A stretch of DNA of 64,000 bases from an uncultured bacterium (lineage in GTDB: Bacteria; Hydrothermota; Tepidihabitantia; Tepidihabitantales; Tepidihabitantaceae). Both the position numbers and the translations under genes were made by a program. Below, one piece after another: positions 6,705 through 60,558 of this stretch. Under the pieces are notes generated by a model. That model searched no databases. It was given only the letters and a program-made list of their open reading frames with translations, and had not been told where the DNA came from. Position 1 is the stretch's first letter. Each line of letters begins with the position of its first letter. The DNA is taken from positions 6,722 to 70,721 of the forward strand of contig CAZQZR010000001.1 in assembly GCA_964597845.1 (NCBI GenBank), in the 5' to 3' direction.

Positions 6705-6727
6705 CGACAGACCGATAGCGTCAAGGA

Positions 6728-7390: not shown

Positions 7391-7463
7391 TGGGCCGTGC
7401 GGGATTCGAACCCGCGACCACCGGATTAAAAATCAGGTGCTCTGCCAACTGAGCTAACGGCCC
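7391..7463 (-). tRNA. tRNA-Lys (anticodon UUU)
   Basis: Reverse complement reads GGGCCGTTAGCTCAGTTGGCAGAGCACCTGATTTTTAATCCGGTGGTCGCGGGTTCGAATCCCGCACGGCCCA. 7-bp acceptor, TTCGAAT T-loop, anticodon loop TTTTTAA. CCA not encoded. Confidence 0.9.
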
Positions 7464-7472
7464 TAACCACTT

Positions 7473-7501
7473 CAGATTGCAGATTGTAGATTGCAGATTG
7501 C
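7473..7501. repeat. heptamer array CAGATTG x4 in the tRNA-Lys/tRNA-Leu spacer
   Basis: CAGATTGCAGATTGTAGATTGCAGATTGC; a related CAGATTGTAGACTACAGATTAGAG lies at 7645-7668 in the next spacer. Confidence 0.85.
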
Positions 7502-7542
7502 CGAAGTCAAAGGGAAATCAGGAATCAACAATCTTGAGCTGA

Positions 7543-7630
7543 TGCCGGGGGCCGGACTTGAACCGGCACGACCCGTATTCGGGTCAAGGGATTTTAAGTC
7601 CCTGGCGTCTGCCTGTTCCGCCACCCCGGC
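7543..7630 (-). tRNA. tRNA-Leu (anticodon UAA), long variable arm
   Basis: Reverse complement reads GCCGGGGTGGCGGAACAGGCAGACGCCAGGGACTTAAAATCCCTTGACCCGAATACGGGTCGTGCCGGTTCAAGTCCGGCCCCCGGCA. Anticodon stem AGGGA/TCCCT, loop CTTAAAA. Confidence 0.9.
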
Positions 7631-7733
7631 CATAACGGACATTTCAGATTGTAGACTACAGATTAGAGAAGTCAAAGAGACGGGGCCCAACCGGGGAATC
7701 GAGAATCGCCAGCCCAAAACCGACAATGAAAAG

Positions 7734-7805
7734 AGGCGGCTTCGGGATTTGCACCCGAGCGTAACGGTTTTGCAGACCGTCGCCTTACTGCTTGGCTAAG
7801 CCGCC
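7734..7805 (-). tRNA. tRNA-Cys (anticodon GCA) with non-canonical D-loop/T-loop
   Basis: Reverse complement reads GGCGGCTTAGCCAAGCAGTAAGGCGACGGTCTGCAAAACCGTTACGCTCGGGTGCAAATCCCGAAGCCGCCT. Perfect 7-bp acceptor, anticodon stem ACGGT/ACCGT with loop CTGCAAA, U73 discriminator typical of tRNA-Cys. T-loop is TGCAAAT rather than TTCRANT. Confidence 0.75.
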
Positions 7806-7887
7806 GCTCCGGAAAGGGTAGAAAACGAAGTGCAAGGGACAAACTGGAAACTCCGGCGTTCGGAGTTCGCACTTCGCACTTGAAACA

Positions 7888-7960
7888 AGCGGGAGACGGG
7901 ATTTGAACCCGCGACCCCTACCTTGGCAAGGTAGTGCTCTACCAACTGAGCTACTCCCGC
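7888..7960 (-). tRNA. tRNA-Gly (anticodon GCC)
   Basis: Reverse complement reads GCGGGAGTAGCTCAGTTGGTAGAGCACTACCTTGCCAAGGTAGGGGTCGCGGGTTCAAATCCCGTCTCCCGCT. Anticodon stem CTACC/GGTAG, loop TTGCCAA. Confidence 0.9.
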
Positions 7961-8070
7961 AACAACGGGACAATAGTGAATTGAGGGCAGTGAAGAGTGA
8001 AGTTCGTTCCGGTGCCGTGTGCTGCTTCACTATTCTCTACTCCATATTCCCCACTCCCTATCCTTGTATC

Positions 8071-8143
8071 CGGCCCCAACGGGAGTCGAACCCGTGTCTT
8101 CACCTTGAAAGAGTGATGTCCTGAACCGCTAGACGATGGGGCC
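8071..8143 (-). tRNA. tRNA-Glu (anticodon UUC)
   Basis: Reverse complement reads GGCCCCATCGTCTAGCGGTTCAGGACATCACTCTTTCAAGGTGAAGACACGGGTTCGACTCCCGTTGGGGCCG. Anticodon loop CTTTCAA. Layout resembles E. coli tRNA-Glu. Confidence 0.9.
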
Positions 8144-8210
8144 ACCACTCTTCCGGGCCCGGGTGCGAAGCCGCCCGGCCCGGGTAAATCTAGCCCGCCG
8201 GGGCGGGTTG

Positions 8211-10001
8211 TCAATACGCCAGCGCGTCCCGGTAATCTTTAATTTCGGGCTGCTTGAGCATTTCCTGCATCAGGTCCTGAGCGACCTGCTGCCGGCGCTG
8301 CTGGACATAGGCTGCCGGATCGAGCGTCGAAGTTGGCGTTCGCTCGTCGCAACGGACGATAAACGCGCCCCAGCTTGCCTCAACCACGCCGTACTCCTCC
8401 CCGGGGTTGAGTACGGCAGCCGTGCCGGCAAATTCCGGGCCTTTCTTGCGGCGGCAATCAAGCAACCCGTCGAACTCCTCGGTTTTAAGCTCGACGTCAG
8501 AGTCTCCCTTGGCGTACTCCTCGAGGCCCTTACCTGCTTTAATTGCAGCCAGCGCCTCTTCGGCCTTGGCCAGCCAGATACGTTTCTGTTTATCCTGCTG
8601 TACCTGCCAGGTCGCGGGCGTCTTGGCTTTGTCGAACTCCTGAATTCCGGCCGGCTTCGCTTCGACTAGCGCGAACACGTAGTAACCTTTGGCGCCCTGC
8701 TGCGGCTTGTCGAAAACTTGCCCGACCTTCGCTTTCTTCGCCCAATCGACGAGCTGCGTTGGGCTCTCAAGATTCAGGTAGTTGTAGTAGTCGTCCACGT
8801 TGGTGGCCATCGTGCGCGCCAGCGTTATCGGCAAGTTGAACTGGCTGGCGGCGCTGTCGAACGTCGTGGCCTCCGCCTTGTCCACGAAACTGCGCACCGA
8901 ATCTCTTGCCGTCGCTACCGCCTCGGTTCCCATTGTCACACGGACGAGTATCCGACGGTAGGCAACCGAGTCCTTGTTGGTGCTGTCGAGCAGGGCAATC
9001 TGCCAGCCGTACGCGGCCAGGAAAGGCGGACTGAACGCGCCGGGCTTGAGTCTGCTCACCACGCTGTCGGTCGGCTTGTCCAACTGGCTGCGCGGGACCA
9101 TGACCGACAGGGTTTCACCCTCAAGGTCGCTGTAGTCGAGCATGGCCAGGTTGAACGTCTCGCCCTTGAGGAGCTGGTCGTAGGCCCGATCGATTGTCTC
9201 TTTCGCCGCTACCGAGTCGTCTCGGGTCACGCCCAGCGGGAAGAAGACGTACCGGACCTGCCGGGTTTCCTTCGCACGGAAGTTTTCCTGGTGAGCGTCA
9301 TACCAGGCGCGCACCTCCGAATCGGACGGCTCAACCGGAGCTTTCCCCTTCCCCGGCCGGGGCCCGAAAAAAAGCGCCGTGACTTTCCACTTCGTATTGG
9401 CGGCGGCGAGCGCGTCGTCGGTTTCCGCCTTCGTCACCCGGTAGGCGTTGACGAGGTCGATCCGGAATTTCTCTTTGGGCAGCATGTCCAGGAGGTCCCG
9501 GTAGTACTTGCTGAAATACGCCCGGTTCTCGGGCGAGCTGATGACCTGAAGGTACTTCTGCTGGTCGAACTTGCCGTCGGTCATTAGTTCGGGTTTGTTG
9601 CGGAGTTCCTCGGGCGGGTTCGACTGGATGATTTCCATCACCTCGTCCTGCGTGACGCTGATGTTCTCTGCTTTCAGCACTTTGGCCCAAGTGATTTCGG
9701 AAAGCAGAAACTGCCACGCCTGCTGCTGGACGGTCTGATAGTCTTGACTGGACAAATCGCGCAAACGGTTGTCGCTCTTGTACTTGTCGGTGATGTAGCT
9801 GACGGCGGCTCGATACTCCTCCGGGGTTATGTTGTGTTTCCCGACTTGGCCGACGTAGCCGTGGGTATCCTGGGTTCGACCCCGGCTGCCCCGGGTTGCG
9901 AGCATTCGCCAGATCTCGCTCATCAGGAAGCCGGCGATGAATGCCGCGGCAACAATAAACATCACGACGCGGACGCGCTTGCGCATATCACTAAGCATCA
10001 T
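8211..10001 (-). CDS. PpiD/SurA-N-like membrane-anchored periplasmic chaperone
   Basis: ORF 8211..10037 (TTG) trimmed to ATG 10001. MMLSDMRKRVRVVMFIVAAAFIAGFLM (N-terminal TM anchor) is followed by a long soluble domain, as in PpiD-type chaperones. Confidence 0.5.
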   Translation of the reverse strand: MMLSDMRKRVRVVMFIVAAAFIAGFLMSEIWRMLATRGSRGRTQDTHGYVGQVGKHNITPEEYRAAVSYITDKYKSDNRLRDLSSQDYQTVQQQAWQFLLSEITWAKVLKAENISVTQDEVMEIIQSNPPEELRNKPELMTDGKFDQQKYLQVISSPENRAYFSKYYRDLLDMLPKEKFRIDLVNAYRVTKAETDDALAAANTKWKVTALFFGPRPGKGKAPVEPSDSEVRAWYDAHQENFRAKETRQVRYVFFPLGVTRDDSVAAKETIDRAYDQLLKGETFNLAMLDYSDLEGETLSVMVPRSQLDKPTDSVVSRLKPGAFSPPFLAAYGWQIALLDSTNKDSVAYRRILVRVTMGTEAVATARDSVRSFVDKAEATTFDSAASQFNLPITLARTMATNVDDYYNYLNLESPTQLVDWAKKAKVGQVFDKPQQGAKGYYVFALVEAKPAGIQEFDKAKTPATWQVQQDKQKRIWLAKAEEALAAIKAGKGLEEYAKGDSDVELKTEEFDGLLDCRRKKGPEFAGTAAVLNPGEEYGVVEASWGAFIVRCDERTPTSTLDPAAYVQQRRQQVAQDLMQEMLKQPEIKDYRDALAY

Positions 10002-35565: not shown

Positions 35566-35825
35566 TTGCTTTCAAGCGAGGTTTTGAACGAGGTTTGAAA
35601 TGTGCTTTGAACCGAGCTTTTGATTAAGCTTTTCCGCGAGCTTTGAACCAAGCTTTGAAACAAGCTGTTTCTTGAGCTTTTCCTTGAGCTTTGAGTCGAG
35701 CTTTGCGAGAAGCTTTGAAGTAAGCTTTTGTCCGAGCTTTGAAATGAACTTTCAAGTGAGTTTTTCAAGAAGCTCTTGAGTGAGCTTTCTCGGGAGCTTT
35801 CCGGCGAGCTTTGTGGAAAGCTGTT
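35566..35825. repeat. 12-nt-period array (about 21 units) of GAGCTTTS octamer plus 4 variable nt
   Basis: GAGGTTTTGAAC GAGGTTTGAAAT GTGCTTTGAACC GAGCTTTTGATT AAGCTTTTCCGC GAGCTTTGAACC ... GAGCTTTCCGGC GAGCTTTGTGGA. Preceded by CCCCCCGGGTT and followed directly by an octamer array. Confidence 0.85.
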
Positions 35826-48996: not shown

Positions 48997-49073
48997 AGGG
49001 GTTCTGGGTTTCAGGGGTTCCGGGGTTCGGGTCGGGCACTAGAACCCTTGAACCCGCGAACCCCTGAACCCTG
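48997..49073. terminator. long imperfect hairpin built from inverted GGGGTTC / GAACCCC octamer arrays between convergent genes
   Basis: Left arm GGGGTTCTGGGTTTCAGGGGTTCCGGGGTTCGGGTCGGG, loop CACTAG, right arm AACCCTTGAACCCGCGAACCCCTGAACCCTG. Lies between the DUF4389 stop (48935) and the YfiM-like stop (49077). Confidence 0.6.
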
Positions 49074-49076
49074 TTC

Positions 49077-49502
49077 TTAGAAGCGGTGGATGAAGGCGAA
49101 GTAGCCGACGCAGATACCGGCGGCATCAGCCACCAGGTCCTTCCATGAGAAGTGTCTCGACGGCCCGGCCAGGTCGTTGAATTCCTTGCAGACACCCAGC
49201 GTCAGAGTGCCGCCCAGGGCAATACCGGTCGGCCAGGGAGATGGCATGTTGACCCGGTTGGCGCTCAGGTGATACGCCGCGCCGACGGTGACGAAGCTGG
49301 CCGAAAAGTGCCAGAACTTGTCCATCGCGAACCAGCGGTCGGTCTCGGACCGTGGTCGAGTGGTCGAAAGGGCAAGTGACCTAGTGGTCGAGTGGTCGAG
49401 TGGTCTAGTGGCGGACGAGCAGGGGAGCGGGCGAGGAAGGGAGTCGCGCAGGCTGGCCGGAACCGACTGGGCGAGGACGGTCAGCACAAGGAGCAGATTC
49501 AT
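49077..49502 (-). CDS. YfiM/DUF2279-like small envelope protein with repeat-derived linker
   Basis: 141 aa. DKFWHFSASF...CKEFNDL...FSWKDLVADAAG resembles YfiM. The linker SSATRPLDHSTTRSLALSTTRPRS is encoded by the AGTGGTC array at 49351-49414. Confidence 0.55.
   Translation of the reverse strand: MNLLLVLTVLAQSVPASLRDSLPRPLPCSSATRPLDHSTTRSLALSTTRPRSETDRWFAMDKFWHFSASFVTVGAAYHLSANRVNMPSPWPTGIALGGTLTLGVCKEFNDLAGPSRHFSWKDLVADAAGICVGYFAFIHRF
49351..49414. repeat. AGTGGTC octamer array inside the YfiM-like CDS
   Basis: CGTGGTCGAGTGGTCGAAAGGGCAAGTGACCTAGTGGTCGAGTGGTCGAGTGGTCTAGTGGCGG. Confidence 0.85.
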
Positions 49503-49656
49503 CGTCTGATTGTCGCAAGTCCCGCCGCCGAGTCAAGCTGAGGCGTCCGGAAACCGACATACAACCGCCGAGACCCGGAACGGAGCATCCGCAGATTACG
49601 CAGGCTACACGGATTCCGCTCCACTTTCCGCCAATCGACATCGACAATCGGGAAGC

Positions 49657-49926
49657 GAAAGCTCGCTAGAAAGCTCACCGGAAAGCTCCCTGGAAAGCTC
49701 ATCAGAAAGCTCCTTCAAGAGCTCATTTCAGAGCTTAGTCCAAAGCTCAATCCAAAGCTCATTTCACCGCTCAGCGCATAGCTCACGCCAAAGCTCAGGC
49801 CATCGCTTCTTCCATCGCTCAGCGCAAAGCTTCGCCGAAAGCTCCGGTCAAAGCTCTTCTGAAAGCTGGACTCAAGGCTCATTTTAGAGTTCTTTTCAAG
49901 GCTTGGCTGAAAGCTAGCTCGAAAAC
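49657..49926. repeat. 12-nt-period array (about 22 units) of SAAAGCTC octamer plus 4 variable nt (reverse orientation of the 35566-35825 array)
   Basis: GAAAGCTCGCTA GAAAGCTCACCG GAAAGCTCCCTG GAAAGCTCATCA GAAAGCTCCTTC AAGAGCTCATTT CAGAGCTTAGTC CAAAGCTCAATC CAAAGCTCATTT ... GAAAGCTAGCTC. Followed by AACCCGGGGGG. Confidence 0.9.
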
Positions 49927-51510: not shown

Positions 51511-54141
51511 ATGTGGCGCGCGCTTGTTCTGCTCATGCTGCCCCTAGTGCTCGCGTGCCACCGCCGAGTTCCCCCGGTTGAAATCAACCTGCTCTGGCAG
51601 CGAGACTATCTCAACATTACGCCGGCGGACGTTAATGGCGACTCGACGGACGAATTCGTCTCCATAACAGATGACTATGTCCTTAACCGTATCAGTTCGG
51701 ACATGCGAGCCGCAGGCAAGACCATCTGGACGGATCGCGGGACATTCACCCCCTACAGCGTTGTTGGGGAGTCGAAGAAAACCGGCTTCTGGTACACACA
51801 CGTCCGGCACGACTCTCTGCTCCTATTCAGCTCGCTAGCGGGTCGAGACCTCCTTGTCACCTGTGGGCATGACTCCCTTCCACCGGCTGGCTGGGATGGC
51901 TCAGCCTCCGGCGTGACCCTGCTGGACATCGACAACGACGGCCGGCTCGATGCCATAGTGAGCTTCGGCAGCGGCTATGACGCCAGGCCGCGTGGGATGT
52001 GCGCCATCGACTATGCCGCAGGTGGCACAATCTGGACGTACCTGACCGGCCCGAATATTGACGAACCGCCGACCTTCGCTGACATTGACCACGACGGCCA
52101 GACGGAGATTCTCTTCGGGTCGCTGGCACAAAGGAACGGCAATGTGGCCAATGGGACAGCGGACGACAGCACCTATGTGTTCCTGCTTGACTGCCGAGGC
52201 AGACTGCGGTGGGCTAGACGAATCGGGCGATATTCCTCCATCGCCCACTCTGCGTTCGCACCGGCGAGTAGAGGAATGCCCGGCCGAGTAGTCGTCTACG
52301 AAACCGGCAGTGAGGAAGACGGCCGCTCGGGCGACAGCGCGTTCATCCTCGACTGGCGAACTGGAGAAGTCCTTGTGCGGCGTCAGTACGGTAGGTATTC
52401 GAGCTGCGGCACGACAGCCAGGGGCGCAGATGGACGGACACGTACCGTGCTCGGCGGCTCGGATGACACCCTGCGAGTCCTTGATGATTCGCTGAGGCTC
52501 ACGCGGAGTGCCTGGTTTCGCGGCGGCATCCGTCAGGTTATCGCCGGCAGCTTCTCGGATCGAGGCCAAGACGAGTTGGTCGTGCTGACGAATGATGGGC
52601 TCATGATTCTGCTTGACACACTGCTCCGAACCCGTGCCGTCAAGCCCTGTCCGTCTACCGCTGTCACCACCACGTTCCGGCTCGTGCGGTACGAAGGGAA
52701 GAACCGTCTGCTCGGGGCGAACTCAAACGGTCCCGGACGTACTTGGCAATTGTATGACTTCAGGACGGTCCCGGTGATCCAGCGACGCGTCCCGCTCACA
52801 TCTGTTCTTACGGGACTCGGATTCCTGCTGGCTACCTTCGTGGCCGTTCTGCTCTTGCTCCAAAGTCGTCAGACCCGCGACATCCGGGCGGTAATTCGCG
52901 GCCTGACCGGCCAAGCCGGTGTGGTTGAGTTGAACCTGCGCGGTGACGTGAAGCGAACCAACCCGAAGGCACGCGAGCTACTTGGGGGTGAGACCATTCC
53001 GTACGGTCCGCTGGCTCAGGCAGTTAAGGCGGCGCTGGGTGGCATAGCAGGAACCAACCCGAGGGAACTTCCAGTTGCCCTCGACAATGGCAAGACTGTG
53101 CTCGCACGGGCGGCGCGCGTGCGCACCGGCGTCATGCTCACACTGGAGGACATCTCGGCGGTCGAGTATCTGCAGTGGGTCAAGGCCTGGGCGCCGGTGG
53201 CGCAGAAGTTGGCGCACGGCATCAAGAATCCCCTCGGTACAATCATGGGCGCGGTCGAGCAGATAGAGACAGAGGTGAATAGGAGGCGGACGAAGTCAGA
53301 AACGAGAGGCGAGAAGCTAGAGGCTAGAAGTGCGGAAGAAGGGAGCGCGGAGGAAGTCAAGAGCCAGAAGCCAGAAGCCAAAAGCCAAGACGATACGGAG
53401 AAGGCGGACGAGCGGGTGAAGAAGTACATCGGATATGTGAAGGACGAAGTTGCCAGGCTGAAGAAGATGACCGACGCATTCATGCGGTTCACCAAGCTGA
53501 ACCCGCCTGCGCTCGAACCGAAGAACGTCAACGAGCTTGTCCGGAAGGTCGTAGCCAAGTACGAGGGCGCGCTGGCCAAGGGCATCTCGCTTGAGCTGAG
53601 TCTCGATGACCGGCTGCCGTTGGTGGCACTGGATGAAGAGGGAATCGCGAATGTGCTGGACATCGTGGTCGAGAACGCCGTCGAGGCGATGACGGTGAAC
53701 CCGAAGTCAACCACCGAGATACCAAGTCACCAAGCTCCGGACGGAACGGACGCGGAGACAAGGCAACACGGGGATGCGGCGAGGGCACTGAGGACTCGGA
53801 CGTCGGTCGGCGACAGCGAAAGCGAGTGTCATTCCGAGGGAGTCCGACGAGTCGAGGAATCTCGCCTGAGTGACCCCTCGACTCCGCTCGGGGTGACTAA
53901 AGGAGGCGGGTCGTATGTCCGAATCGAGGTCGAGGATACCGGAATGGGCATCCCGCAAAAGTACCTGGACAAGGTCTTCGAGCCCTATTTCACGTATGGC
54001 AAGGCTGACGGGACCGGATTGGGACTCGCCTTGGCCAAGAAGATAGTGGAGGACCACAAGGGGCGGATGGAGATGCAGAGCAAAGAAGGAGTCGGAACGA
54101 CGGTTACCATCGTGCTGCCGGCTAAGGGGAATGGTGAGTAG
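51511..54141 (+). CDS. sensor histidine kinase with FG-GAP/VCBS-like periplasmic domain and two low-complexity inserts
   Basis: ORF 51394..54141 trimmed to ATG 51511 (MWRALVLLMLPLVLA). H-box LAHGIKNPLGTIMG, N-box VVENAVEAM, G1 VEDTGMGIP, G2 GTGLGLA. Inserts at about 53287-53400 and 53700-53905. Confidence 0.8.
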   Translation: MWRALVLLMLPLVLACHRRVPPVEINLLWQRDYLNITPADVNGDSTDEFVSITDDYVLNRISSDMRAAGKTIWTDRGTFTPYSVVGESKKTGFWYTHVRHDSLLLFSSLAGRDLLVTCGHDSLPPAGWDGSASGVTLLDIDNDGRLDAIVSFGSGYDARPRGMCAIDYAAGGTIWTYLTGPNIDEPPTFADIDHDGQTEILFGSLAQRNGNVANGTADDSTYVFLLDCRGRLRWARRIGRYSSIAHSAFAPASRGMPGRVVVYETGSEEDGRSGDSAFILDWRTGEVLVRRQYGRYSSCGTTARGADGRTRTVLGGSDDTLRVLDDSLRLTRSAWFRGGIRQVIAGSFSDRGQDELVVLTNDGLMILLDTLLRTRAVKPCPSTAVTTTFRLVRYEGKNRLLGANSNGPGRTWQLYDFRTVPVIQRRVPLTSVLTGLGFLLATFVAVLLLLQSRQTRDIRAVIRGLTGQAGVVELNLRGDVKRTNPKARELLGGETIPYGPLAQAVKAALGGIAGTNPRELPVALDNGKTVLARAARVRTGVMLTLEDISAVEYLQWVKAWAPVAQKLAHGIKNPLGTIMGAVEQIETEVNRRRTKSETRGEKLEARSAEEGSAEEVKSQKPEAKSQDDTEKADERVKKYIGYVKDEVARLKKMTDAFMRFTKLNPPALEPKNVNELVRKVVAKYEGALAKGISLELSLDDRLPLVALDEEGIANVLDIVVENAVEAMTVNPKSTTEIPSHQAPDGTDAETRQHGDAARALRTRTSVGDSESECHSEGVRRVEESRLSDPSTPLGVTKGGGSYVRIEVEDTGMGIPQKYLDKVFEPYFTYGKADGTGLGLALAKKIVEDHKGRMEMQSKEGVGTTVTIVLPAKGNGE
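53287..53400. repeat. word-repeat insert in the kinase DHp region (GAGAAGC/CTAGAAG/CCAGAAGC words)
   Basis: CGGACGAAGTCAGAAACGAGAGGCGAGAAGCTAGAGGCTAGAAGT ... GAGCCAGAAGCCAGAAGCCAAAAGCCAAGACG. The first 45 nt duplicate the intergenic 54151-54188. Confidence 0.85.
53828..53866. repeat. REP-like word GTCATTCCGAG-N-CGAGGAATCTCGCC (copy 2, inside the kinase ATPase domain)
   Basis: GTCATTCCGAGGGAGTCCGACGAGTCGAGGAATCTCGCC. Confidence 0.7.
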
Positions 54142-54150
54142 CAGAAACAC

Positions 54151-54251
54151 CGGACGAAGTCAGAGGCGAGAAGCTAGATGCTAGAAGTCAGAAATGCCGA
54201 TTCTGAGGCTGGACAGGGTGAATCTGTGCTAATCTGTGGAATCTGTGGATG
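54151..54251. repeat. intergenic word repeats between kinase and response-regulator genes
   Basis: CGGACGAAGTCAGAGGCGAGAAGCTAGATGCTAGAAGTCAGAAATG ... GTGAATCTGTGCTAATCTGTGGAATCTGTGGATG. Confidence 0.85.
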
Positions 54252-54271
54252 TTTCTCCGGAAGGAGGACCT

Positions 54272-55618
54272 GTGGCTGAGAGAGTGCTGGTTGTGGACGA
54301 CGAACCGAGGGCCCGAGATATCATGGCCGACATCCTGTCGGGCGCTGGAATGGAGGTGTTGCAGGCCGGTGACGGAGAAGAGGCGGTGAGGCTTGCGGGC
54401 GAGCATGAGCTGAACCTTGTGTTCCTGGACCTGATGTTGCCGGACATGAACGGCGCTCAGGTTCTGGAGACAATCCTCGCCGGTAAACCAACCCTGCCGG
54501 TCGTCATGATCTCCGGGCAAGGCTCTATTCAAGATGCAGTCAAGGCCACGAAGCTGGGAGCTTATGACTTCCTGGAGAAGCCGGCGGAGCGGGAGAAGAT
54601 ACTACTGGCTGCGCGGAACGCCTTGGAGCGGGACCGAATGTGGCGCGTGCTGGCCGGGCTGCGGGAGGAGTCGTTGCGTCGGTACCAGATGGTCGGCGCG
54701 AGTACGGCGATGCACGAGATCTTCCAGAAGATAGACGAAATCTCCCCGACCCGTGCGCCCGTACTTGTGACCGGCGAGAGTGGCGGCGGGAAAGAACTGG
54801 TAGCCCGTGCAATCCACCTCAAGAGTGACCGTAAGGACAAGGCCTTTGTGAAGCTGAACTGCGCGGCCATTCCTGAGGCCCTGATAGAGAGTGAGCTGTT
54901 CGGCTATGAGAAGGGCGCGTTCACAGGAGCTTTGACCCAGAAGAAGGGCAAGCTTGAGACCGCCCATGAGGGCACCCTGCTGCTGGATGAGGTCGGAGAC
55001 CTGTCGCCTGCCAGTCAGGCCAAGCTGTTGCGATTCCTGCAGGAGAACGAGTTTGAGCGTCTGGGGGCGACGACCACGATGCGGGTTGACGTGCGGGTAA
55101 TCTCAGCCACCAACAAGAACCTGCGTCAGGAGATCGTCGAGAGGCGGTTCCGCGAAGACCTGTACTTCCGCCTGAACGTGATTCACATACACGTGCCGCC
55201 GCTGCGCGAACGCAAGGACGACATCCCCTTGCTTGCCGACCACTTCCTTGGGCAGCAGTGCGAGGAGAACGGTGTACCTAAGAAGCAGCTAACGCCTGAG
55301 GCGGTCGCGTTTCTGAAGAGCGCGGATTGGGCGCACAACAATGCGCGTGAGCTTGAGAATCTCATGAAGCGGGCCGCGATTCTCGTGAAGGCTCAGGACA
55401 TCACGCCACGTGACCTGGTGCCCCTCATGGAACCGATGGGTACAGCGCCGTCTCACGCCGAGGCCAGCCTGCGCGATGCCCGGGACGAGTTTGAGCGTGA
55501 GTTCATCAGAGCATCGCTGGCCCGAAATAACTGGGACAAGACCAGAACCGCGGAACAGCTCGGCATAGAACGGACGCACCTGCATCGGAAGCTGAAAGAC
55601 CTGGGACTAACCGAGTAG
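54272..55618 (+). CDS. sigma-54-dependent response regulator (NtrC family)
   Basis: GTG 54272 follows AAGGAGG (54261-54267). REC domain VLVVDDE..FLDLMLPDMNG. AAA+ domain GESGGGKE with GAFTGA loop. C-terminal Fis-type HTH TRTAEQLGIERTHLHRKLK. Confidence 0.9.
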   Translation: MAERVLVVDDEPRARDIMADILSGAGMEVLQAGDGEEAVRLAGEHELNLVFLDLMLPDMNGAQVLETILAGKPTLPVVMISGQGSIQDAVKATKLGAYDFLEKPAEREKILLAARNALERDRMWRVLAGLREESLRRYQMVGASTAMHEIFQKIDEISPTRAPVLVTGESGGGKELVARAIHLKSDRKDKAFVKLNCAAIPEALIESELFGYEKGAFTGALTQKKGKLETAHEGTLLLDEVGDLSPASQAKLLRFLQENEFERLGATTTMRVDVRVISATNKNLRQEIVERRFREDLYFRLNVIHIHVPPLRERKDDIPLLADHFLGQQCEENGVPKKQLTPEAVAFLKSADWAHNNARELENLMKRAAILVKAQDITPRDLVPLMEPMGTAPSHAEASLRDARDEFEREFIRASLARNNWDKTRTAEQLGIERTHLHRKLKDLGLTE

Positions 55619-55640: not shown

Positions 55641-55818
55641 GAAGTGATCCAGTGGTCTGGTGGCCCAGTGGTCGGGCGGTGTAGTGGTCAAGTGGTCTTG
55701 TGGTCCAGTGATCTAGTGAGGAAGAGACGGCGGCTATCGGTTCAGGAGAGTTCTGATGAAATTCGAGCCATGCACGAGACCGGTCGGAGGTGGTCTAGTG
55801 GTCCAGTGGTCTAGTGAG
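55641..55818. repeat. two AGTGGTC(N) octamer arrays (55641-55720, 55789-55818) downstream of the ApgM-like gene
   Basis: GAAGTGATCCAGTGGTCTGGTGGCCCAGTGGTCGGGCGGTGTAGTGGTCAAGTGGTCTTGTGGTCCAGTGATCTAGTGAG ... GGTGGTCTAGTGGTCCAGTGGTCTAGTGAGG. The second array contains the gene's stop codon. Confidence 0.9.
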
Positions 55819-57064
55819 GAGCGGACGCAAGCTCGCGACCGAGGAGAGTCCGGATGAAAGCAGACCCGCGGAGTAGGCCAAGGGAACCGGAAGCGCAGGC
55901 GACCTCGTCGTAGGACTGAACCGAGTCCGGCTCAAGGCGCGGGTTGAGTATGGCGACCGGAACCGGGCCGTGAACGTGATTGCCCTTCGCGACTGGCGTG
56001 AGGTGGTCGGTCAGGACGGCCACTGTGGCCTCGATCCCCTTGTCTTCAATCCCGTTCATCACGCGCGCGACCAGGCGCGAGTCGAGATACTCGATGCCAA
56101 GCACCTTCTGTTTCACATCCCGCGCGTGGCCGGCTTCGTCCGTCGCCTCGACGTGCACGTAGACAAAGTCATGGTCCTCAAGAACGTTCAGGCAGGCGTC
56201 GGCTTTGCCCTCGTAGTTGGTGTCAATCAGGCCGGTTGCACCGGGGACGTCAATCACGTCGAGCCCGGCATAGACGCCCAGCCCCTTAATCAAGTCAACC
56301 GCAGAGATGACCGCGCCGCTGATGCCGTACTGCTCTCTCATGGTCTTCATCTTCGGCTTGCGGCCCTGGGACCAGAACCAGATCGAGTTAGCCGGGTCCT
56401 TGCCGGCCTTGACTCGGGCTTCGTTGACTGAGTGTCGGGACAGCAAATCCCATGAGCAGCGAATCATGTCGTTCAGCCGGTCGACCGTCGGCTTGGCCTC
56501 GTCGGACTTCGGGACAATCATCAGGTCCTCGACCAACTCGCCGACGTGGTCGTGGGGCGGAAAGCACTCGAAGTCGGTAGAGAGAGTGGGACCAAGTGGC
56601 TGAGGGTCATCTGACGAGAGAAGGAGGAGGTGGCGGTAGGAGATACCGGGGAAGAAGCGAACCTCGTCACAACCAAGGTAACGGTCAACATGACGGATGA
56701 GTTTGTGGGCCTCCTCAGTGGAGATGTGACCCGCCGAGTGATTCTTGATGCGGCCGTCGGCAATGCAGATAAGGTTACAGCGCATGGCGATGTCGGTGTC
56801 GCGCAACTTGACGCCCATTGAGGCGGCCTCGATGACGCCGCGGCCCTGGTAGCATTCGCGCGGGTCGTAACCGAGCACGGTGAGATTCGCGACTTCCGAG
56901 CCGGGCGGCATGTCGTCGTCCACCGTGATGAATGAGCCGCAGCGGCCGAGACGAGCAATGCGGTCGATGGCAGGCTTATTCGCGACTTGGAGTGGAGTCT
57001 TATCGCCGAGTTCGGGGATGGGGAAATCGGCCGCGCCGTCGGCGAGGAAGATGATGGAACGCAT
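55811..57064 (-). CDS. cofactor-independent phosphoglycerate-mutase homologue (ApgM family; proposed homoserine kinase type)
   Basis: 417 aa. MRSIIFLADGAADFPIPELGDKTPLQVANKPAIDRIA is typical of ApgM-like metalloenzymes. Located in an operon with thrC. Confidence 0.75.
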   Translation of the reverse strand: MRSIIFLADGAADFPIPELGDKTPLQVANKPAIDRIARLGRCGSFITVDDDMPPGSEVANLTVLGYDPRECYQGRGVIEAASMGVKLRDTDIAMRCNLICIADGRIKNHSAGHISTEEAHKLIRHVDRYLGCDEVRFFPGISYRHLLLLSSDDPQPLGPTLSTDFECFPPHDHVGELVEDLMIVPKSDEAKPTVDRLNDMIRCSWDLLSRHSVNEARVKAGKDPANSIWFWSQGRKPKMKTMREQYGISGAVISAVDLIKGLGVYAGLDVIDVPGATGLIDTNYEGKADACLNVLEDHDFVYVHVEATDEAGHARDVKQKVLGIEYLDSRLVARVMNGIEDKGIEATVAVLTDHLTPVAKGNHVHGPVPVAILNPRLEPDSVQSYDEVACASGSLGLLRGSAFIRTLLGRELASAPH

Positions 57065-57197
57065 AGTGGTCTAGTGGTCCAGTGGTCTAGTGGTCGAGTG
57101 AAGGGAGAAGAATGTGGACGAGTGGTCCAGTGGTCTAGAGGTCAAGTGACGGGAGAAGACAGTGGTTAAGTGGTCCAGTGGTCGAGTGAGCACGTGG
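57065..57197. repeat. AGTGGTC(N) octamer arrays filling the whole M42/ApgM-like spacer
   Basis: AGTGGTCTAGTGGTCCAGTGGTCTAGTGGTCGAGTGAAGGGAGAAGAATGTGGACGAGTGGTCCAGTGGTCTAGAGGTCAAGTGACGGGAGAAGACAGTGGTTAAGTGGTCCAGTGGTCGAGTGAGCACGTGGTC; shows a higher-order unit of about 50 nt. Confidence 0.9.
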
Positions 57198-58256
57198 TCA
57201 GCGCTTCCTGCCGTTCGGCTCAACGTAAGCGAGAACCAGCCGCACGGTCGCGGCCAGCGCCTTGCGGTGGGTCCTTTCTAGGTTGTGCGAAGCGTTGATT
57301 CCCGGACCAATCAGTCCTGTGATGGCGTCCAGCCCGGCCCGCACCGCCACCGCTGCGTCCGAGCCATAAAACGGGTAGATGTCGACTTTGTATGGTATCT
57401 TCTGCGTCCGGCACAGCTTCACCAACCGCTGCCGTAGTGCGTAGTCAAACGGCCCGGTCGAGTCTTTGGCGCAGATGCAGACCGAGTATTCATCCGATTC
57501 CTGTCCCTTGCCGACTGCGCCCATGTCAACGGCAACCAACTCGCCGACTTCCGGCGGGATGCCGGCCGAAGCGCCGAAACCCACTTCCTCCGACGTGCTG
57601 AAGAGAAAGTGTGTGGCTAGTCGCGGCCGCGAACCGGAATCGGCTAGAGCCTTGAGCGCGCCGAGCAGGCAGGCAACCCCGGCCTTGTCGTCGAGGTGGC
57701 GGGTCTTGATGAACCCGGTTTCGGTCACCTCGCAGCGCGGGTCGAAATGGACGTAGTCGCCGACCGCGACGCCGAGCTTGGCGACCTGCTTTTCGTTCCG
57801 CACCTCGGCATCGAGCCGGATTCTCATGTTATCGAATTCCCGCTTGGCATCGGATATCTTCTTGCTGACATGGGCAGACGGCTCATCGAACAGAATGGTG
57901 CCGCGGAAGAGCTTGCCTGCGCTGGTCTCGACCGTGACGTACTCGCCCTCGACCGTGGCCAGCGCGTAGCCGCCGACCGCCGTGAATACGAGCGACCCGT
58001 CACTGCCGAGTTCCTTCACCATCGCGCCTAGGGTGTCGACATGGGCGGTGAGCGCCCGATGCGGGCCGGTCTCCCGGCCCTCAAGCGTTGCCAGCAGCGC
58101 ACCACGTCCGGTGCGCTTGTGCCCCACGCCCATCCGGGTCAGTTCCTTTTCGACATAGCTGACAGCCACGTCGGTGTGGCCGGCCAGGCTCGGCGTCTTC
58201 ACCAGCCGCACGACCTGTTCGACAACGTAATCGGTCAGGCGGTTATCATTTGGCAT
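57198..58256 (-). CDS. M42-family aminopeptidase/endoglucanase-like metallopeptidase
   Basis: 352 aa. LTAHVDTLGAMVKEL, RHLDDKAGVA and FSTSEEVG motifs. Confidence 0.75.
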   Translation of the reverse strand: MPNDNRLTDYVVEQVVRLVKTPSLAGHTDVAVSYVEKELTRMGVGHKRTGRGALLATLEGRETGPHRALTAHVDTLGAMVKELGSDGSLVFTAVGGYALATVEGEYVTVETSAGKLFRGTILFDEPSAHVSKKISDAKREFDNMRIRLDAEVRNEKQVAKLGVAVGDYVHFDPRCEVTETGFIKTRHLDDKAGVACLLGALKALADSGSRPRLATHFLFSTSEEVGFGASAGIPPEVGELVAVDMGAVGKGQESDEYSVCICAKDSTGPFDYALRQRLVKLCRTQKIPYKVDIYPFYGSDAAVAVRAGLDAITGLIGPGINASHNLERTHRKALAATVRLVLAYVEPNGRKR

Positions 58257-58340
58257 AGTGGTCTAGTGCTCCAGTGGTCTAGTGGTTAAGTGATAGGAGG
58301 AGATAGTGGTCAAGTGGCCCAGTGGTCACGTGATCAAGTG
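58257..58340. repeat. AGTGGTC(N) octamer array between the four-helix ORF and the M42 gene
   Basis: AGTGGTCTAGTGCTCCAGTGGTCTAGTGGTTAAGTGATAGGAGGAGATAGTGGTCAAGTGGCCCAGTGGTCACGTGATCAAGTG. Confidence 0.9.
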
Positions 58341-58757: not shown

Positions 58758-60105
58758 ACACTCTCTGCAGGAAGCCCTTGAACCAATGGTAGTCATTCGG
58801 CCCGTGTTCGTAGTGCTCGGGTCTGGCATCAAGCCCGGCGAGCGACGGCGGCAGCGGCGGGTCGACGCCTAGCAGGTGTTGAATCTCCTCCGGGAACTTG
58901 GCCGGGTGAGCGGTTTCGATGGAGATGGCCAGAGGAGAGTTGCGAGTGGTCAAGGATTCCAAGTAGCGCTCGAGGCCGGCCCAGCCGACCGCGCCGTGCG
59001 GTTCGAGCATGGTTTTGTAATTGCTCCAGGCGTCCTTGATTGCCTGCCGGGTCCCCTCGTCGTCAATGCTCACCGGATATATGTCGCGCCGCATGGCCGC
59101 AAAGTCGGGCGGCTTCGAGATGCTGCCCTGTTCATCCATCACCCCGCCGTACAAGGCGACAAGCCGCGGCAGGTTGGATGGATGACCGACGTTCATCGCG
59201 TTGGAAATGCAGACACGCGACGGCACAATCCTCTCGTACCTGCCGGTGGCGACAAACTTCGGGAACTCATCGTTCGCGTTGGTCGCGATGACGAACCGGT
59301 CGACCGGCAGGCCCATGCGCCGGGCAATCAGGCCGCCGCAGATGTCGCCGAAGTTGCCGGACGGGACCGAGATGATTGCCGCTTCGTCGTTCTCCTGCAG
59401 CCGGGCCCAAGCGTACAGGTAGTAGACCGCCTGCGGCAGGAGCCGGCCGATGTTGATGGAGTTGGCCGAGGAGAACCGGATGCGCCCGAGTTCCGGGTCG
59501 GTGAAAGCGCGCTTGACCAGAGCCTGACAGTCGTCGAACTGGCCGTCGACGCCGATGACCGTAACATTGCCGCCGAGCGTCGTCATCTGCTTGCGCTGGC
59601 GGTCCGAGACTTCCTTAATAGGAAAGAGGACGACCATCGAGATGCGGTCGACGTTATGGAACGCGTGGGCGACCGCGGAGCCGGTATCGCCGGACGTGGC
59701 GGTCAGGATAACCAACTCGCCGCCTTCCTGCGCGAGGAAGTAGCGCATCATCCGAGCCATCATCCGGGCCGCGAAGTCTTTGAAGCTCGCGGTCGGGCCT
59801 TGGTCGAGGCGCATGAGGAACGTGCGGCCATAGACGCGTTCGAGCGGCACCGCGTAGTTGTAGCACTCGGCGCAGAGCCGCATCAGTTCATCGTCGGGAA
59901 TCAGGCCTTCCGTGTAGCGCCGCAGCACGGCAAAGGCGATTTCCGGGTACGGCTTCTCGCGGAACCCGATTATCTCGTCGAGCGGTATGCGAGGAATCTC
60001 GCGCGGCATGTACAGGCCCTTGTCCGGGGCTTGGCCGGTGAGAAGCGCGGTGCGTAAGTCGACGTCGGGGGAGGACAGGTTGGTGCTGTATAGAAGAGGG
60101 TTCAC
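58750..60105 (-). CDS. thrC: threonine synthase
   Basis: 451 aa. PLP-lysine motif GPTASFKDFAARMM, SGDTGSAVAH and SGNFGD. AGGAG 7 nt upstream of GTG 60105. Confidence 0.9.
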   Translation of the reverse strand: MNPLLYSTNLSSPDVDLRTALLTGQAPDKGLYMPREIPRIPLDEIIGFREKPYPEIAFAVLRRYTEGLIPDDELMRLCAECYNYAVPLERVYGRTFLMRLDQGPTASFKDFAARMMARMMRYFLAQEGGELVILTATSGDTGSAVAHAFHNVDRISMVVLFPIKEVSDRQRKQMTTLGGNVTVIGVDGQFDDCQALVKRAFTDPELGRIRFSSANSINIGRLLPQAVYYLYAWARLQENDEAAIISVPSGNFGDICGGLIARRMGLPVDRFVIATNANDEFPKFVATGRYERIVPSRVCISNAMNVGHPSNLPRLVALYGGVMDEQGSISKPPDFAAMRRDIYPVSIDDEGTRQAIKDAWSNYKTMLEPHGAVGWAGLERYLESLTTRNSPLAISIETAHPAKFPEEIQHLLGVDPPLPPSLAGLDARPEHYEHGPNDYHWFKGFLQRVFK

Positions 60106-60512
60106 GGCTTGGCTCCTGGAGGATTCGAGGATTCAAGGATTCGAGGATTCGAGTGCCGGCGTTCCAGTGACTTTATCAGTGACATCATCATTCGTTCCAC
60201 TTCGCGGATATCCTCGGATAGCTTGCCATATTCATCCAGCTTGAGGTATTCAAGGTCGCGAGCTAGCATCGTCTGGGTCTCCAGTTCGCTGTTCGAAGCG
60301 TACGCGAAGCGCAGCGAACGTAGGTAGTCACCAGTCGTGCTGCGGCTGTATCCCTCCGCGATATTGGACGGAACCGAGACCGCGGCCCGGCGCATCTGAG
60401 AGGTTAGGCCGTAGCGCTCGTCGGCCGGGAACTTCCTTGTCGACCGATAGACCTGCAGGCAGATTCGGTACGACTTCTGCCAGACCAGCAGGTCGCGGTA
60501 ATTCCTTAGCAC
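60102..60512 (-). CDS. four-helix-bundle protein (23S rRNA intervening-sequence protein / Avd family), second copy
   Basis: 136 aa. YRDLLVWQKSYRICLQVY...YGLTSQMRRAAVSVPSNIAEGYSRST..DYLRSLRFAYAS..E. The C-terminal RHSNPRILESSNPPGAKP is read-through of the AGGATTC array. Overlaps the thrC start by 4 nt. Confidence 0.8.
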   Translation of the reverse strand: MLRNYRDLLVWQKSYRICLQVYRSTRKFPADERYGLTSQMRRAAVSVPSNIAEGYSRSTTGDYLRSLRFAYASNSELETQTMLARDLEYLKLDEYGKLSEDIREVERMMMSLIKSLERRHSNPRILESSNPPGAKP

Positions 60513-60555
60513 GCTCCGCCCACTGGAATCCTAGAATCCTCGATTCCTCGAACCC
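60118..60555 (-). mobile_element. putative IVS-like cassette: second four-helix-bundle ORF enclosed by inverted AGGATTC octamer arrays
   Basis: Left arm 60118-60155 is GGAGGATTCGAGGATTCAAGGATTCGAGGATTCGAGTG. The reverse complement of right arm 60521-60555 is GGGTTCGAGGAATCGAGGATTCTAGGATTCCAGTG. About 23 of 27 positions match in the aligned core. Confidence 0.45.
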
Positions 60556-60558
60556 TTC

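Follow-up and report, generated by a model that had tools for sequence, protein, structure and literature searches.

We analyzed a stretch of 64,000 nt from an uncultured bacterium of a WOR-3-like lineage (positions 6,722 to 70,721 of contig CAZQZR010000001.1, assembly GCA_964597845.1, forward strand), which we will call the window. Part of this stretch is an operon that encodes a sensor histidine kinase and an NtrC-type response regulator. A short sequence occurs twice in the operon: in frame within the DHp domain of the kinase, and again in the spacer behind the kinase gene. The coding segment is probably a copy of a short, non-palindromic, purine-rich dispersed repeat that is characteristic of this lineage. 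This repeat, which we will call the CTAGAAG element, occupies numerous unrelated positions between genes, and it also lies within several unrelated conserved proteins, where it is read in every case in the one frame that is open. The features of the operon are:

51511..54141, + strand: sensor histidine kinase gene (list of open reading frames, Pfam, orthologue alignment, and AlphaFold2 model)
53212..53235, + strand: H-box of the kinase, AHGIKNPL, which is invariant in all orthologues and aligns to the H-boxes of ZraS and ThkA
53278..53403, + strand: the whole lineage-specific insertion at the tip of the DHp hairpin, NRRRTKSETRGEKLEARSAEEGSAEEVKSQKPEAKSQDDTEK (alignments to orthologues and to PDB structures)
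53285..53336, + strand: coding copy of the dispersed element with the usual flanks, GGCGGA...GCGGA (repeat matches and family consensus)
53348..53399, + strand: second, degenerate module, CGGAGGAAGTCAAG plus AGCCAGA/AGCCAAA heptamers ... ACGGA (repeat search; period 7 in Tandem Repeats Finder, or TRF)
53698..53789, + strand: insertion 2a in the HATPase_c domain of the kinase, similar to a word array, GAAGTCAACCACCGAGATACCAAGTCACCAAGC (orthologue alignment; predicted local distance difference test, or pLDDT, below 50)
53803..53910, + strand: insertion 2b in the HATPase_c domain, before the G1 box, containing CATTCCGAGGGAGTCCGACGAGTCGAGGAATCTC (orthologue alignment; pLDDT below 50)
54142..54271, + strand: spacer between kinase and regulator, 130 nt (the kinase's stop codon is TAG at 54139-54141 and the regulator's start codon is GTG at 54272)
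54150..54200, + strand: spacer copy of the element, CCGGA-CGAAGTCAGAGGCGAGAAGCTAGATGCTAGAAGTCAGAAAT-GCCGA, with a 41-nt core at 54155-54195
54220..54248, + strand: a different word array in the spacer, three copies of GAATCTGTG (TRF)
54272..55618, + strand: NtrC-type sigma-54-dependent response regulator (Pfam REC, Sigma54_activat (AAA+), and HTH_8)

An insertion at the tip of the DHp hairpin

The kinase's reading frame is open from 51394, and the start in its orthologues corresponds to MWR at 51511 (lengths of 915/876 amino acids). The protein has a periplasmic domain that resembles FG-GAP/beta-propeller proteins, a transmembrane segment, a linker, the HisKA DHp domain, and HATPase_c. Pfam finds HATPase_c (2.3e-18) and, in the periplasmic part, FG-GAP matches. 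HisKA scores 26.0 bits, just below the cut-off of 26.9, because the insertion splits the domain. The codon for the phospho-acceptor histidine is CAC at 53215-53217, and the ATP-binding motifs are ENAVEA, DTGMGI, FEPYF, and GTGLGL (the N, G1, F, and G2 boxes). Going by its sequence, the kinase is intact, with its frame and all catalytic motifs kept. A pseudogene is ruled out: the open reading frame (ORF) and the motifs are whole, and the insertion is in frame in every insert-bearing locus that has a complete kinase ORF. The catalytic motifs, too, are conserved in all of the insert-bearing lineages of this kind.

The insertion comprises 126 nt, or 42 codons (a net gain of 41 codons over the closest orthologue without it), and is 78% purine on the coding strand. 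In alignments to ZraS (PDB 9jfj) and ThkA (3a0r), the kinase has about 41 residues that these structures lack, and they fall between the H-box helix and alpha2. Furthermore, 11 orthologues lack the segment: those in L003, L009, and L010, the first kinase of L082, and 7 more distant ones. (Loci that were fetched for comparison have labels such as L003.) These orthologues read ...VEQIETKV-EDDRVKKY... or equivalent. A preliminary description, made from the letters of the window, had proposed that the segment is an insertion at the loop of the DHp helical hairpin, and this proposal holds. It also gave about 40 charged residues as the amount added; 22 of the 42 residues are charged, with a net charge of 0.

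The insertion is formed by one copy of the element and by the degenerate module. In register, the module is 60% identical to the first copy. A 26-28-nt stretch of the module, AGCCAGAAGCCAGAAGCCAAAAGCCAAG, recurs at 96% identity in L076, L084, L097, and L131, and the same order, with the element followed by the degenerate module, is seen in L026 and L095. The repeats in the module had been read as octamers (CCAGAAGC), but they are the heptamers AGCCAGA/AGCCAAA (TRF period 7, 53354-53388).

The two copies in the operon

The 14-mer CGGACGAAGTCAGA is found exactly at 53287-53300 and at 54151-54164. The 24-mer GGCGAGAAGCTAGAGGCTAGAAGT (53308-53331) matches 54165-54188 with one mismatch; even with up to 3 mismatches allowed, the 64 kb contain no other match. 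The 24-mer had no match in any of 100 shuffles that preserved the dinucleotides. The sole substitution is a T in the spacer and a G in the coding copy. The copies also differ by an indel of exactly 7 nt, AACGAGA, equal to a single unit of the period-7 array that TRF reports at 53305-53328. So the preliminary description of 53287-53331 and 54151-54188 as matching apart from a 7-nt indel was accurate (14/14 plus 23/24). It had suggested a search for further coding/intergenic pairs; this pair is the best non-tandem match of that kind in the window, and other loci have more coding copies.

The core of the coding copy (53291-53331, 41 nt) consists of CGAAGT and then five heptamers, CAGAAAC GAGAGGC GAGAAGC TAGAGGC TAGAAGT, and it is translated as RTKSETRGEKLEARS. 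The copy had been placed about 15 codons after the H-box and was thought to end at 53331. It lies 24 codons after the phospho-acceptor histidine; the core does end at 53331, but the family-type 3' end, GCGGA, runs on to 53336. The spacer copy starts 10 nt past the kinase's TAG stop codon. The array behind it shows that each spacer carries several types of array, and it has a counterpart at the corresponding place in the spacer of L005, the related array ATCTGCGGA.

A dispersed element with a 41-nt core

We scanned public metagenome contigs for the exact 20-mer AGARGCTAGAKGCTAGAAGT, which is common to both of the window's copies, and found it in at least 118 contigs, with flanks that are mostly unrelated. 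Among the matches listed, 51 copies have the consensus cGGaCGAAGTCAGAaGtC-AGAAGCTAGAtGCTAGAAGT-CAGAAGTgCGGA, with 90%+ conservation outside of the searched pattern. A stricter pattern gave 53 unique full copies among the matches listed, and 42 of these have a core of exactly 41 nt. Single-linkage clustering of the flanks gave at least 22 contexts, which under-counts the distinct sites; the flanks share other word arrays. Both copies in the window are therefore members of a dispersed family, rather than the product of a simple or recent duplication of the neighboring spacer repeat, as had been proposed.

The core can be written as CGAAGTCAGA-NNNN-AGAAGCTAGAKGCTAGAAGTCAGAAGT, usually flanked by CGGA...GCGGA. 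It is a fixed order of six GAAGYYA-type heptamers (GAAGTCA, GAAGyyA, GAAGCTA, GAkGCTA, GAAGTCA, and GAAGTgc), and the copies vary mainly at four bases within the second unit and at a single G/T position. About 80% of the core's bases are purines on one strand. The loci with the element have GC contents of 0.57-0.65, as compared to 0.617 for the window, and their flanks carry word arrays of the same types as the window's (such as an AGTGGTC array in L079).

The ends of the element are direct rather than inverted (GAAGT...GAAGT and CGGA...CGGA), and a repeat search found no inverted repeats or inverted arms in or around the window's copies. We found no sign of target-site duplications: the flanks of the same copy match over 2.53 nt, versus 2.58 +/- 0.14 nt for cross-copy controls. 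In IMG/VR viral contigs, there were 0 matches to the full element.

We also noticed that the element can be tandemly multiplied. L077 has four copies at an exact spacing of 72 nt (8218-8453), and both L055 and the gene for methylmalonyl-CoA mutase in L028 (L028:990-1084) have pairs of copies that are 54-75 nt apart.

The spacer copy, 10 nt after the stop codon, is a separate member of the family and is conserved in orthologous operons. In L010, the copy at the same place after the stop codon, GACGAAGTCAGAGGCGAGAAGCTAGATGCTAGAAGTCAGAA, is identical over about 41 nt (41/41), while the adjacent coding DNA is about 91% identical; the kinase of L010 has no DHp insertion. L005 keeps about 39/41 of the element in a spacer that is otherwise unalignable. 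The spacers of L082 and L061/L093 also hold the element, which is recognized by the shared 3' flank TGCCGGACAG.

In the spacer of L005 (L005:4464-4749), a 52-nt direct duplication of the regulator's ribosome-binding site and start (about 90% identical) brackets a 180-nt insert that holds two further arrays besides the CTAGAAG element. A similar truncated regulator start, followed by the element, is found in L034/L109/L123.

In-frame copies inside other proteins

The element's consensus has stop codons in 5 of the 6 frames, and the only open frame encodes DEVRSQKLDARSQK / DEVRSQKLDARSQKCG. Copies of the element lie inside the GIDA domain of MnmG/GidA in L120, L047, L132, and L125, and L057 has two; the MnmG copy adds 17 residues relative to an E. 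coli-type MnmG (8zu0). The methylmalonyl-CoA mutase of L028 has two copies near its N-terminus. In L029 and L036, the element lies between the two domains of a sugar nucleotidyltransferase (NTP_transf_4)/Hexapep protein; in L033, it follows UvrD_C in a UvrD-type helicase; and a 2454-aa ORF in L083 has two copies. The kinases of L001 and L034/L109 have a complete copy, GRSQKLEARSEKLEV, directly after ENAIEAM in the ATP-binding domain. In all of the coding cases that are independent, the sense strand is the purine-rich one, and the stop codons alone account for this. So the claim that intergenic word repeats can colonize conserved coding sequence in frame is general: it applies to MnmG, methylmalonyl-CoA mutase, UvrD, the nucleotidyltransferase, and the kinase sites.

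The ATP-binding domain of the window's own kinase is also enlarged, with about 59 extra residues between the N box and the G1 box in the PDB alignment. Insertion 2a lies between the N-box helix and the conserved ALRxRT strand, at the same site that holds GRSQKLEARSEKLEV in L001 and L034/L109. A BLAST search with 53830-53915, from insertion 2b, found an orthologous copy in the kinase of L010, along with matches over 33-37 nt (88-92% identical) in L041, L106, and L083, which are unrelated loci. Insertion 2b looks like another dispersed repeat family that is used in frame.

The DHp insertion is old

Seven other loci have variable inserts at the identical site of the DHp domain (L001, L002, L005, L008, L034/L109, and the second kinase of L082). 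The inserts are 51 residues in L001/P0002, 41 in L005, 41 in L034/L109, and about 62 in the second kinase of L082; the contigs of L002/P0004 and L008 end within the repeat. A DNA unit, CGAGAGGCGAGAAGC, which includes the extra heptamer, is common to the inserts of the window, L001, and L082. The kinases of the lineages that share the insertion are only about 52-73% identical overall to the window's kinase. Since CGAGAGGCGAGAAGC is common to these three inserts, the coding copy predates the divergence of these kinases. The insertion is old and has been evolving by the gain, loss, and decay of heptamer units. The preliminary description had held that finding the same segment conserved in distant relatives would speak against an insertion. 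The segment is present in relatives, but it is diverged in those seven loci and missing from the 11 orthologues.

A check of populations for alleles with and without the insertion had been suggested. All assemblies of the window's strain carry the same insert-bearing allele: 4 cluster members and 3 contigs are identical, and over 8.6 kb L004 shows 100% identity. An assembly artifact is ruled out, since several independent assemblies have this protein and DNA in identical form. In these same 4 cluster members and 3 contigs (assemblies only), we saw no polymorphism in the length of the tract.

We could not obtain a clean tree of gains and losses, as the kinases are mosaic and L082 has insert-free and insert-bearing kinases in tandem. 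Paralogy or recombination can explain the patchy distribution of the insertion without repeated gain and loss.

A predicted extension of the hairpin

We modeled residues 573-915 of the kinase with AlphaFold2, as a monomer and with an alignment of 11 sequences (mean pLDDT 70.2; predicted template modeling score, or pTM, 0.57). The model superposes on the cytoplasmic domain of ZraS (9jfj_A) with E = 1.5e-16 and a target-normalized TM score of 0.81. It has a helix at residues 15-76, a loop at 77-91, and a helix at 92-128, and the DHp insertion corresponds to model residues 57-98. The first DHp helix runs from before the histidine through the first 20 residues of the insertion, and the second helix begins within the insertion. 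Along the insertion, pLDDT is 85/79/65/53/67; it is low (about 53-65) in the 15-residue tip (77-91), and it is below 50 in the two insertions of the CA (ATP-binding) domain. The insertion is thus predicted to lengthen the hairpin by extending both helices, with a floppy tip. The confidence of the model is only moderate because it is a monomer on a shallow alignment. Modeling had been suggested to see whether the insertion is a tolerated disordered loop; it is predicted to be partly helical rather than simply disordered.

The DHp loop is known to set whether autophosphorylation occurs in cis or in trans, so the insertion could matter.

Origin of the coding copy

The most economical account is that, in an ancient event, a member of the family joined the loop-coding DNA, and that both copies then evolved separately and slowly, with no recent duplication. 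Quite possibly, the founding member was this operon's own spacer copy. An ancient local donor is plausible because a rare unit variant, GAGGCGAGAAGCTAGA, was found among the fetched loci only in DHp inserts (of the window and L082) and spacers (of the window and L010) of this operon.

We propose the following steps. The element, or array-rich spacer DNA that possibly came from this operon's spacer, would have entered the loop-coding region once, by some copy-and-paste or recombination process. Only insertions in the DEVRSQKL(D/E)ARSQK frame, and at surface positions, would survive selection, because 5 of the 6 frames contain stops. The resulting peptide, rich in E, K, R, and S, would lengthen helices alpha1 and alpha2, with a flexible tip, and would be tolerated there, at a distance from the histidine and the ATP site. 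Slippage by one 7-nt unit would shift the frame, so selection would keep purging out-of-frame variants.

Several points weigh against this proposal. There are just two copies of the element in the 64-kb window. Because no mobilizing enzyme, terminal inverted repeats, or target duplications were found, mobility is inferred from the distribution of the element. The family was collected with an exact 20-mer, so the conservation within those 20 bases is by construction. In unbiased comparisons (the spacer copies of the window, L010, and L005), the core is more conserved than its surroundings, which fits a functional motif better than junk. That GAGGCGAGAAGCTAGA is restricted to the DHp and spacer copies of this operon speaks for a local donor instead of an insertion from elsewhere. 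And the AlphaFold2 model is of a monomer, with an alignment of only 11 sequences.

We also considered a recent local duplication or gene conversion, in which the kinase received a copy of the spacer repeat, which lies 860 nt downstream (or the spacer received one from the kinase). This would explain the 37/38 identity of the two copies and why they are the best non-tandem coding/intergenic match in the window. It would also account for the restriction of GAGGCGAGAAGCTAGA to this operon, and AGAGGCGAGAAGC is also in the DHp insert of L001. However, because the insertion and its extra heptamer are common to kinases that are about 52-73% identical, any such copying must be ancient. The 3' ends differ as well: the coding copy ends in CTAGAAGT-GCGGA, which is otherwise found only in L083, L002, and L124, while the spacer copy ends in CTAGAAGTCAGAAAT-GCCGA. 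In local alignments, the coding copy scores higher with a copy in the L083 ORF (78) and with the second insertion of the L001 kinase, in its CA domain (69), than with the spacer copy of the window (59). For the spacer copy, the best score is with that of L010 (89), followed by the MnmG copies. Similarity between the two copies stops at the borders of the element. Finally, a straight copy of the spacer arrangement puts a TAG in frame. When we removed AACGAGA from the coding copy in silico, translation gave ...RRRTKSEARS-stop, so the spacer arrangement is intolerable in the present frame of the kinase. Recent local copying therefore seems unlikely.

Another alternative is that the 41-nt core is a functional nucleic-acid motif, such as a platform for protein binding or a signal for uptake or genome organization, that is selected at the nucleotide level, and that the coding copies are tolerated carriers. 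Uptake signal sequences occur within genes of Haemophilus and Neisseria. The spacer cores of the window and L010 are identical even though the neighboring coding DNA is about 9% different, and L005 retains about 39/41. Similarly, the MnmG copies of L120, L047, and L132 have the same core, although the conserved coding DNA that flanks it is 75-88% identical. Variants of the second unit that are specific to a locus persist across lineages, which argues against simple homogenization, and the length is 41 nt in 42 of 53 copies despite units that are prone to slippage. These observations make selection on the core as a DNA or RNA motif a serious rival. On the other hand, the element shows no orientation preference relative to neighboring genes (41 vs. 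36 upstream and 32 vs. 34 downstream). No Rfam family matches 53000-54500 at E <= 1, and the predicted RNA structure of the spacer is no better than that of shuffled sequences (z = +0.81). The spacer element is missing from 3 of 6 independently found orthologous operons (L001, L009, and L003), and the DHp copies decay freely (L034, L005, and L001). Collecting copies with an exact 20-mer also inflates their apparent conservation. On balance, we consider this alternative improbable.

A broader idea, which we put forward tentatively and which is more doubtful than our proposal of a dispersed repeat, is that the CTAGAAG element represents an undescribed class of repeat. It would be near-invariant because a dedicated protein or RNA recognizes it, for its own propagation or for a function of the host, and it would spread into spacers and into surface loops of essential proteins. 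If this is true, then its spread creates lineage-specific protein extensions as well as latent frameshift or stop switches.

It is quite unlikely that the heptamer tract is a contingency switch for phase variation, in which slipped-strand mispairing adds or removes 7-nt units and turns the kinase off or on. In simulations, deleting the extra heptamer, or adding or removing one AGCCAGA unit, truncated the protein within the DHp domain. L002 runs into an in-frame TAG in its third copy of the element, and non-triplet repeats within ORFs are the classical mechanism in Haemophilus (PMC2651432). But the tracts are short and imperfect (3.4-5 units with 82-94% match), and such tracts rarely slip. All assemblies of the window's strain share one in-frame allele, and the full-length insert-bearing loci with a complete kinase ORF are all in frame. 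The stop codon in L002 may be an assembly artifact, since this contig is 1.9 kb long and breaks off within the repeat.

Independent expansion of purine-rich heptamers in the loop codons and in the spacer, with likeness by convergence, is barely credible: short tandem word arrays abound in the genome (73 TRF rows), and the number of units in the insert differs among lineages, but the same heterogeneous order of units, with non-repeat ends (CGAAGT... and ...GCGGA), is found at over 50 unrelated loci, and the two copies share the 14-nt non-array arm CGGACGAAGTCAGA exactly, with 0 matches in shuffles. A template/variable pair of a diversity-generating retroelement is rejected as well, as there is no adenine-specific pattern, with one T/G substitution and the 7-nt indel between the copies. 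No reverse transcriptase is adjacent to the kinase; the neighbors are the regulator and a phosphoglycerate mutase (only adjacent genes were considered).

The operon and its relatives

The regulator is the partner of the kinase. It has a ribosome-binding site, GGAGGA, at 54263-54268. In the orthologous operon of L003, which has no spacer, the kinase and regulator genes overlap. Across orthologous operons, the regulators are 87-94% identical and the kinases are 44-71% identical.

The kinases are domain mosaics. The sensor part of the window's kinase (51511-52900) is 75% identical to those of L001/L002 and 24% identical to that of L010, and for the region that starts at the H-box and runs to the end, the nearest kinase is that of L010 (80% by pairwise columns, or 76.5% by the columns common to all six). 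It seems that sensor modules are either swapped or evolve at a very high rate. L082 (1-3753) has two tandem kinase genes, insert-free and then insert-bearing, before one regulator. In L061 (305-3078), about 2.7 kb separates the end of the kinase from the regulator.

Related kinases (L034:2310-3302, L082:2627-3583, and L009) have another in-frame insertion between AKY/ARY and G(I/V)SLEL, such as GWDLERLENGDSPTKREDARYSPHFPSRSGTVPVFGGQSPLSR. It looks like a translated palindromic repeat of the GGGGACAGTCCCC type, which is also found near L125.

Other word arrays in the window

The window has several other arrays of short words. An AGTGGTC array (49352-49411) is in frame in an ORF on the minus strand (49077-49503) that encodes a small membrane protein; the array lies just past an N-terminus that resembles a signal peptide (...ATRPLDHSTTRSLALSTTRPRSE...). 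The same family of arrays is directly upstream of several start codons (55643-55718, 55790-55816, 57064-57200, and 58257-58340). Inverted arrays of octamers, four copies of GAGGATTC and four of its complement GAATCCTC (60119-60153 and 60526-60556), bracket a 429-nt ORF (60102-60530). The arrays AGGGGTTC and GAACCCTT (48997-49028 and 49042-49072) face each other, 14 nt apart, and resemble a long hairpin. Another two arrays, each about 200 nt long and with a period of 12 nt (GCTTTGAAnnnn, and GAAAGCTCnnnn on the other strand), lie 14 kb apart in opposite orientations (35583-35812 and 49657-49856). Five tRNA genes (Lys, Leu, Cys, Gly, and Glu; 7391-8144, minus strand) are separated by short word arrays (CAGATTG x4 and TTCGCAC).

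Comparison with known systems

The window's kinase resembles HisKA-family kinases of the NtrB/ZraS type (PDB 9jfj, 3a0r, and 2c2a) in its H-box and its N, G1, F, and G2 motifs, in having a DHp hairpin and a CA domain, and in the cognate NtrC-like regulator directly downstream. It differs in that the tip of its DHp hairpin is about 41 residues longer and its CA domain has about 59 extra residues in two loops, and all of these extra residues are derived from repeats. It is now testable how far the DHp hairpin, which is beside the surface where the regulator docks, can lengthen without loss of signaling.

We searched the literature on tandem repeats in WOR-3 and on heptanucleotide repeats, including the short tandemly repeated repetitive (STRR) sequences of cyanobacteria, and found no description of this element. 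The STRR sequences are reportedly tandem heptanucleotide repeats that are dispersed through the genome, as here, and are mostly intergenic, with unknown function. They are said to be homogeneous arrays of one heptamer with variable copy number, whereas the element has a fixed order of unit variants, defined ends, and in-frame copies.

The simple sequence repeat (SSR) contingency loci of Haemophilus influenzae (PMC2651432) are similar in having a non-triplet tract within an ORF, where a slip of one unit shifts the frame. Both tracts in the DHp insertion are of this kind (53305-53328 and 53354-53388). In contrast to SSRs, which are locus-specific homopolymeric or oligomeric tracts, the element is a dispersed complex unit. 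It exposes TAG codons upon slippage, and its tracts are short and imperfect, with no length polymorphism seen in the assemblies of the window's strain.

ERIC, BOX, and miniature inverted-repeat transposable elements, or MITEs, can insert within genes and carry ORFs (Delihas 2007 and others, cited in PMC10969869). These small repeats at times create in-frame fusions within genes, much as the element does, and they have terminal inverted repeats and usually target duplications. We found neither for the element: its ends are not inverted, and there were no duplications of the target that vary with the site.

The Rickettsia palindromic elements (RPEs; Ogata et al. 2000/2002) are about 100-150 bp, palindromic, hairpin-forming, and MITE-like, as summarized in PMC10969869. 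RPEs share with the element that they are short dispersed repeats, both intergenic and in frame in many unrelated conserved genes, where they encode a conserved peptide; either kind of repeat sits where the fold of the host protein can accommodate it, and some orthologues have it while others do not. The CTAGAAG element has many copies at unrelated loci and in-frame insertions that are absent from homologues, but it is not palindromic. It has a 41-nt core that is built of heptamers, without an inverted repeat or predicted structure, and stops in 5 of 6 frames. The hosts differ too: RPEs are from an obligate intracellular alphaproteobacterium, and the element is from free-living uncultured bacteria of WOR-3-like type.

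In-frame colonization of conserved proteins by repeats, which has been regarded as peculiar to Rickettsia and a few MITEs, thus also occurs in a free-living candidate phylum. In proteins from metagenome-assembled genomes, low-complexity loops that are derived from repeats should not be dismissed as assembly noise or mis-annotation, although such repeats do interrupt assemblies, as several contigs stop within them. It can now be tested what keeps a 41-nt purine tract conserved and what spreads it. RPEs are the closest known parallel in outcome. The architecture of the CTAGAAG element differs from that of RPEs and MITEs in the defining features that we tested, so the same outcome has arisen from a very different element, with heptamer units instead of a palindrome or terminal repeats.

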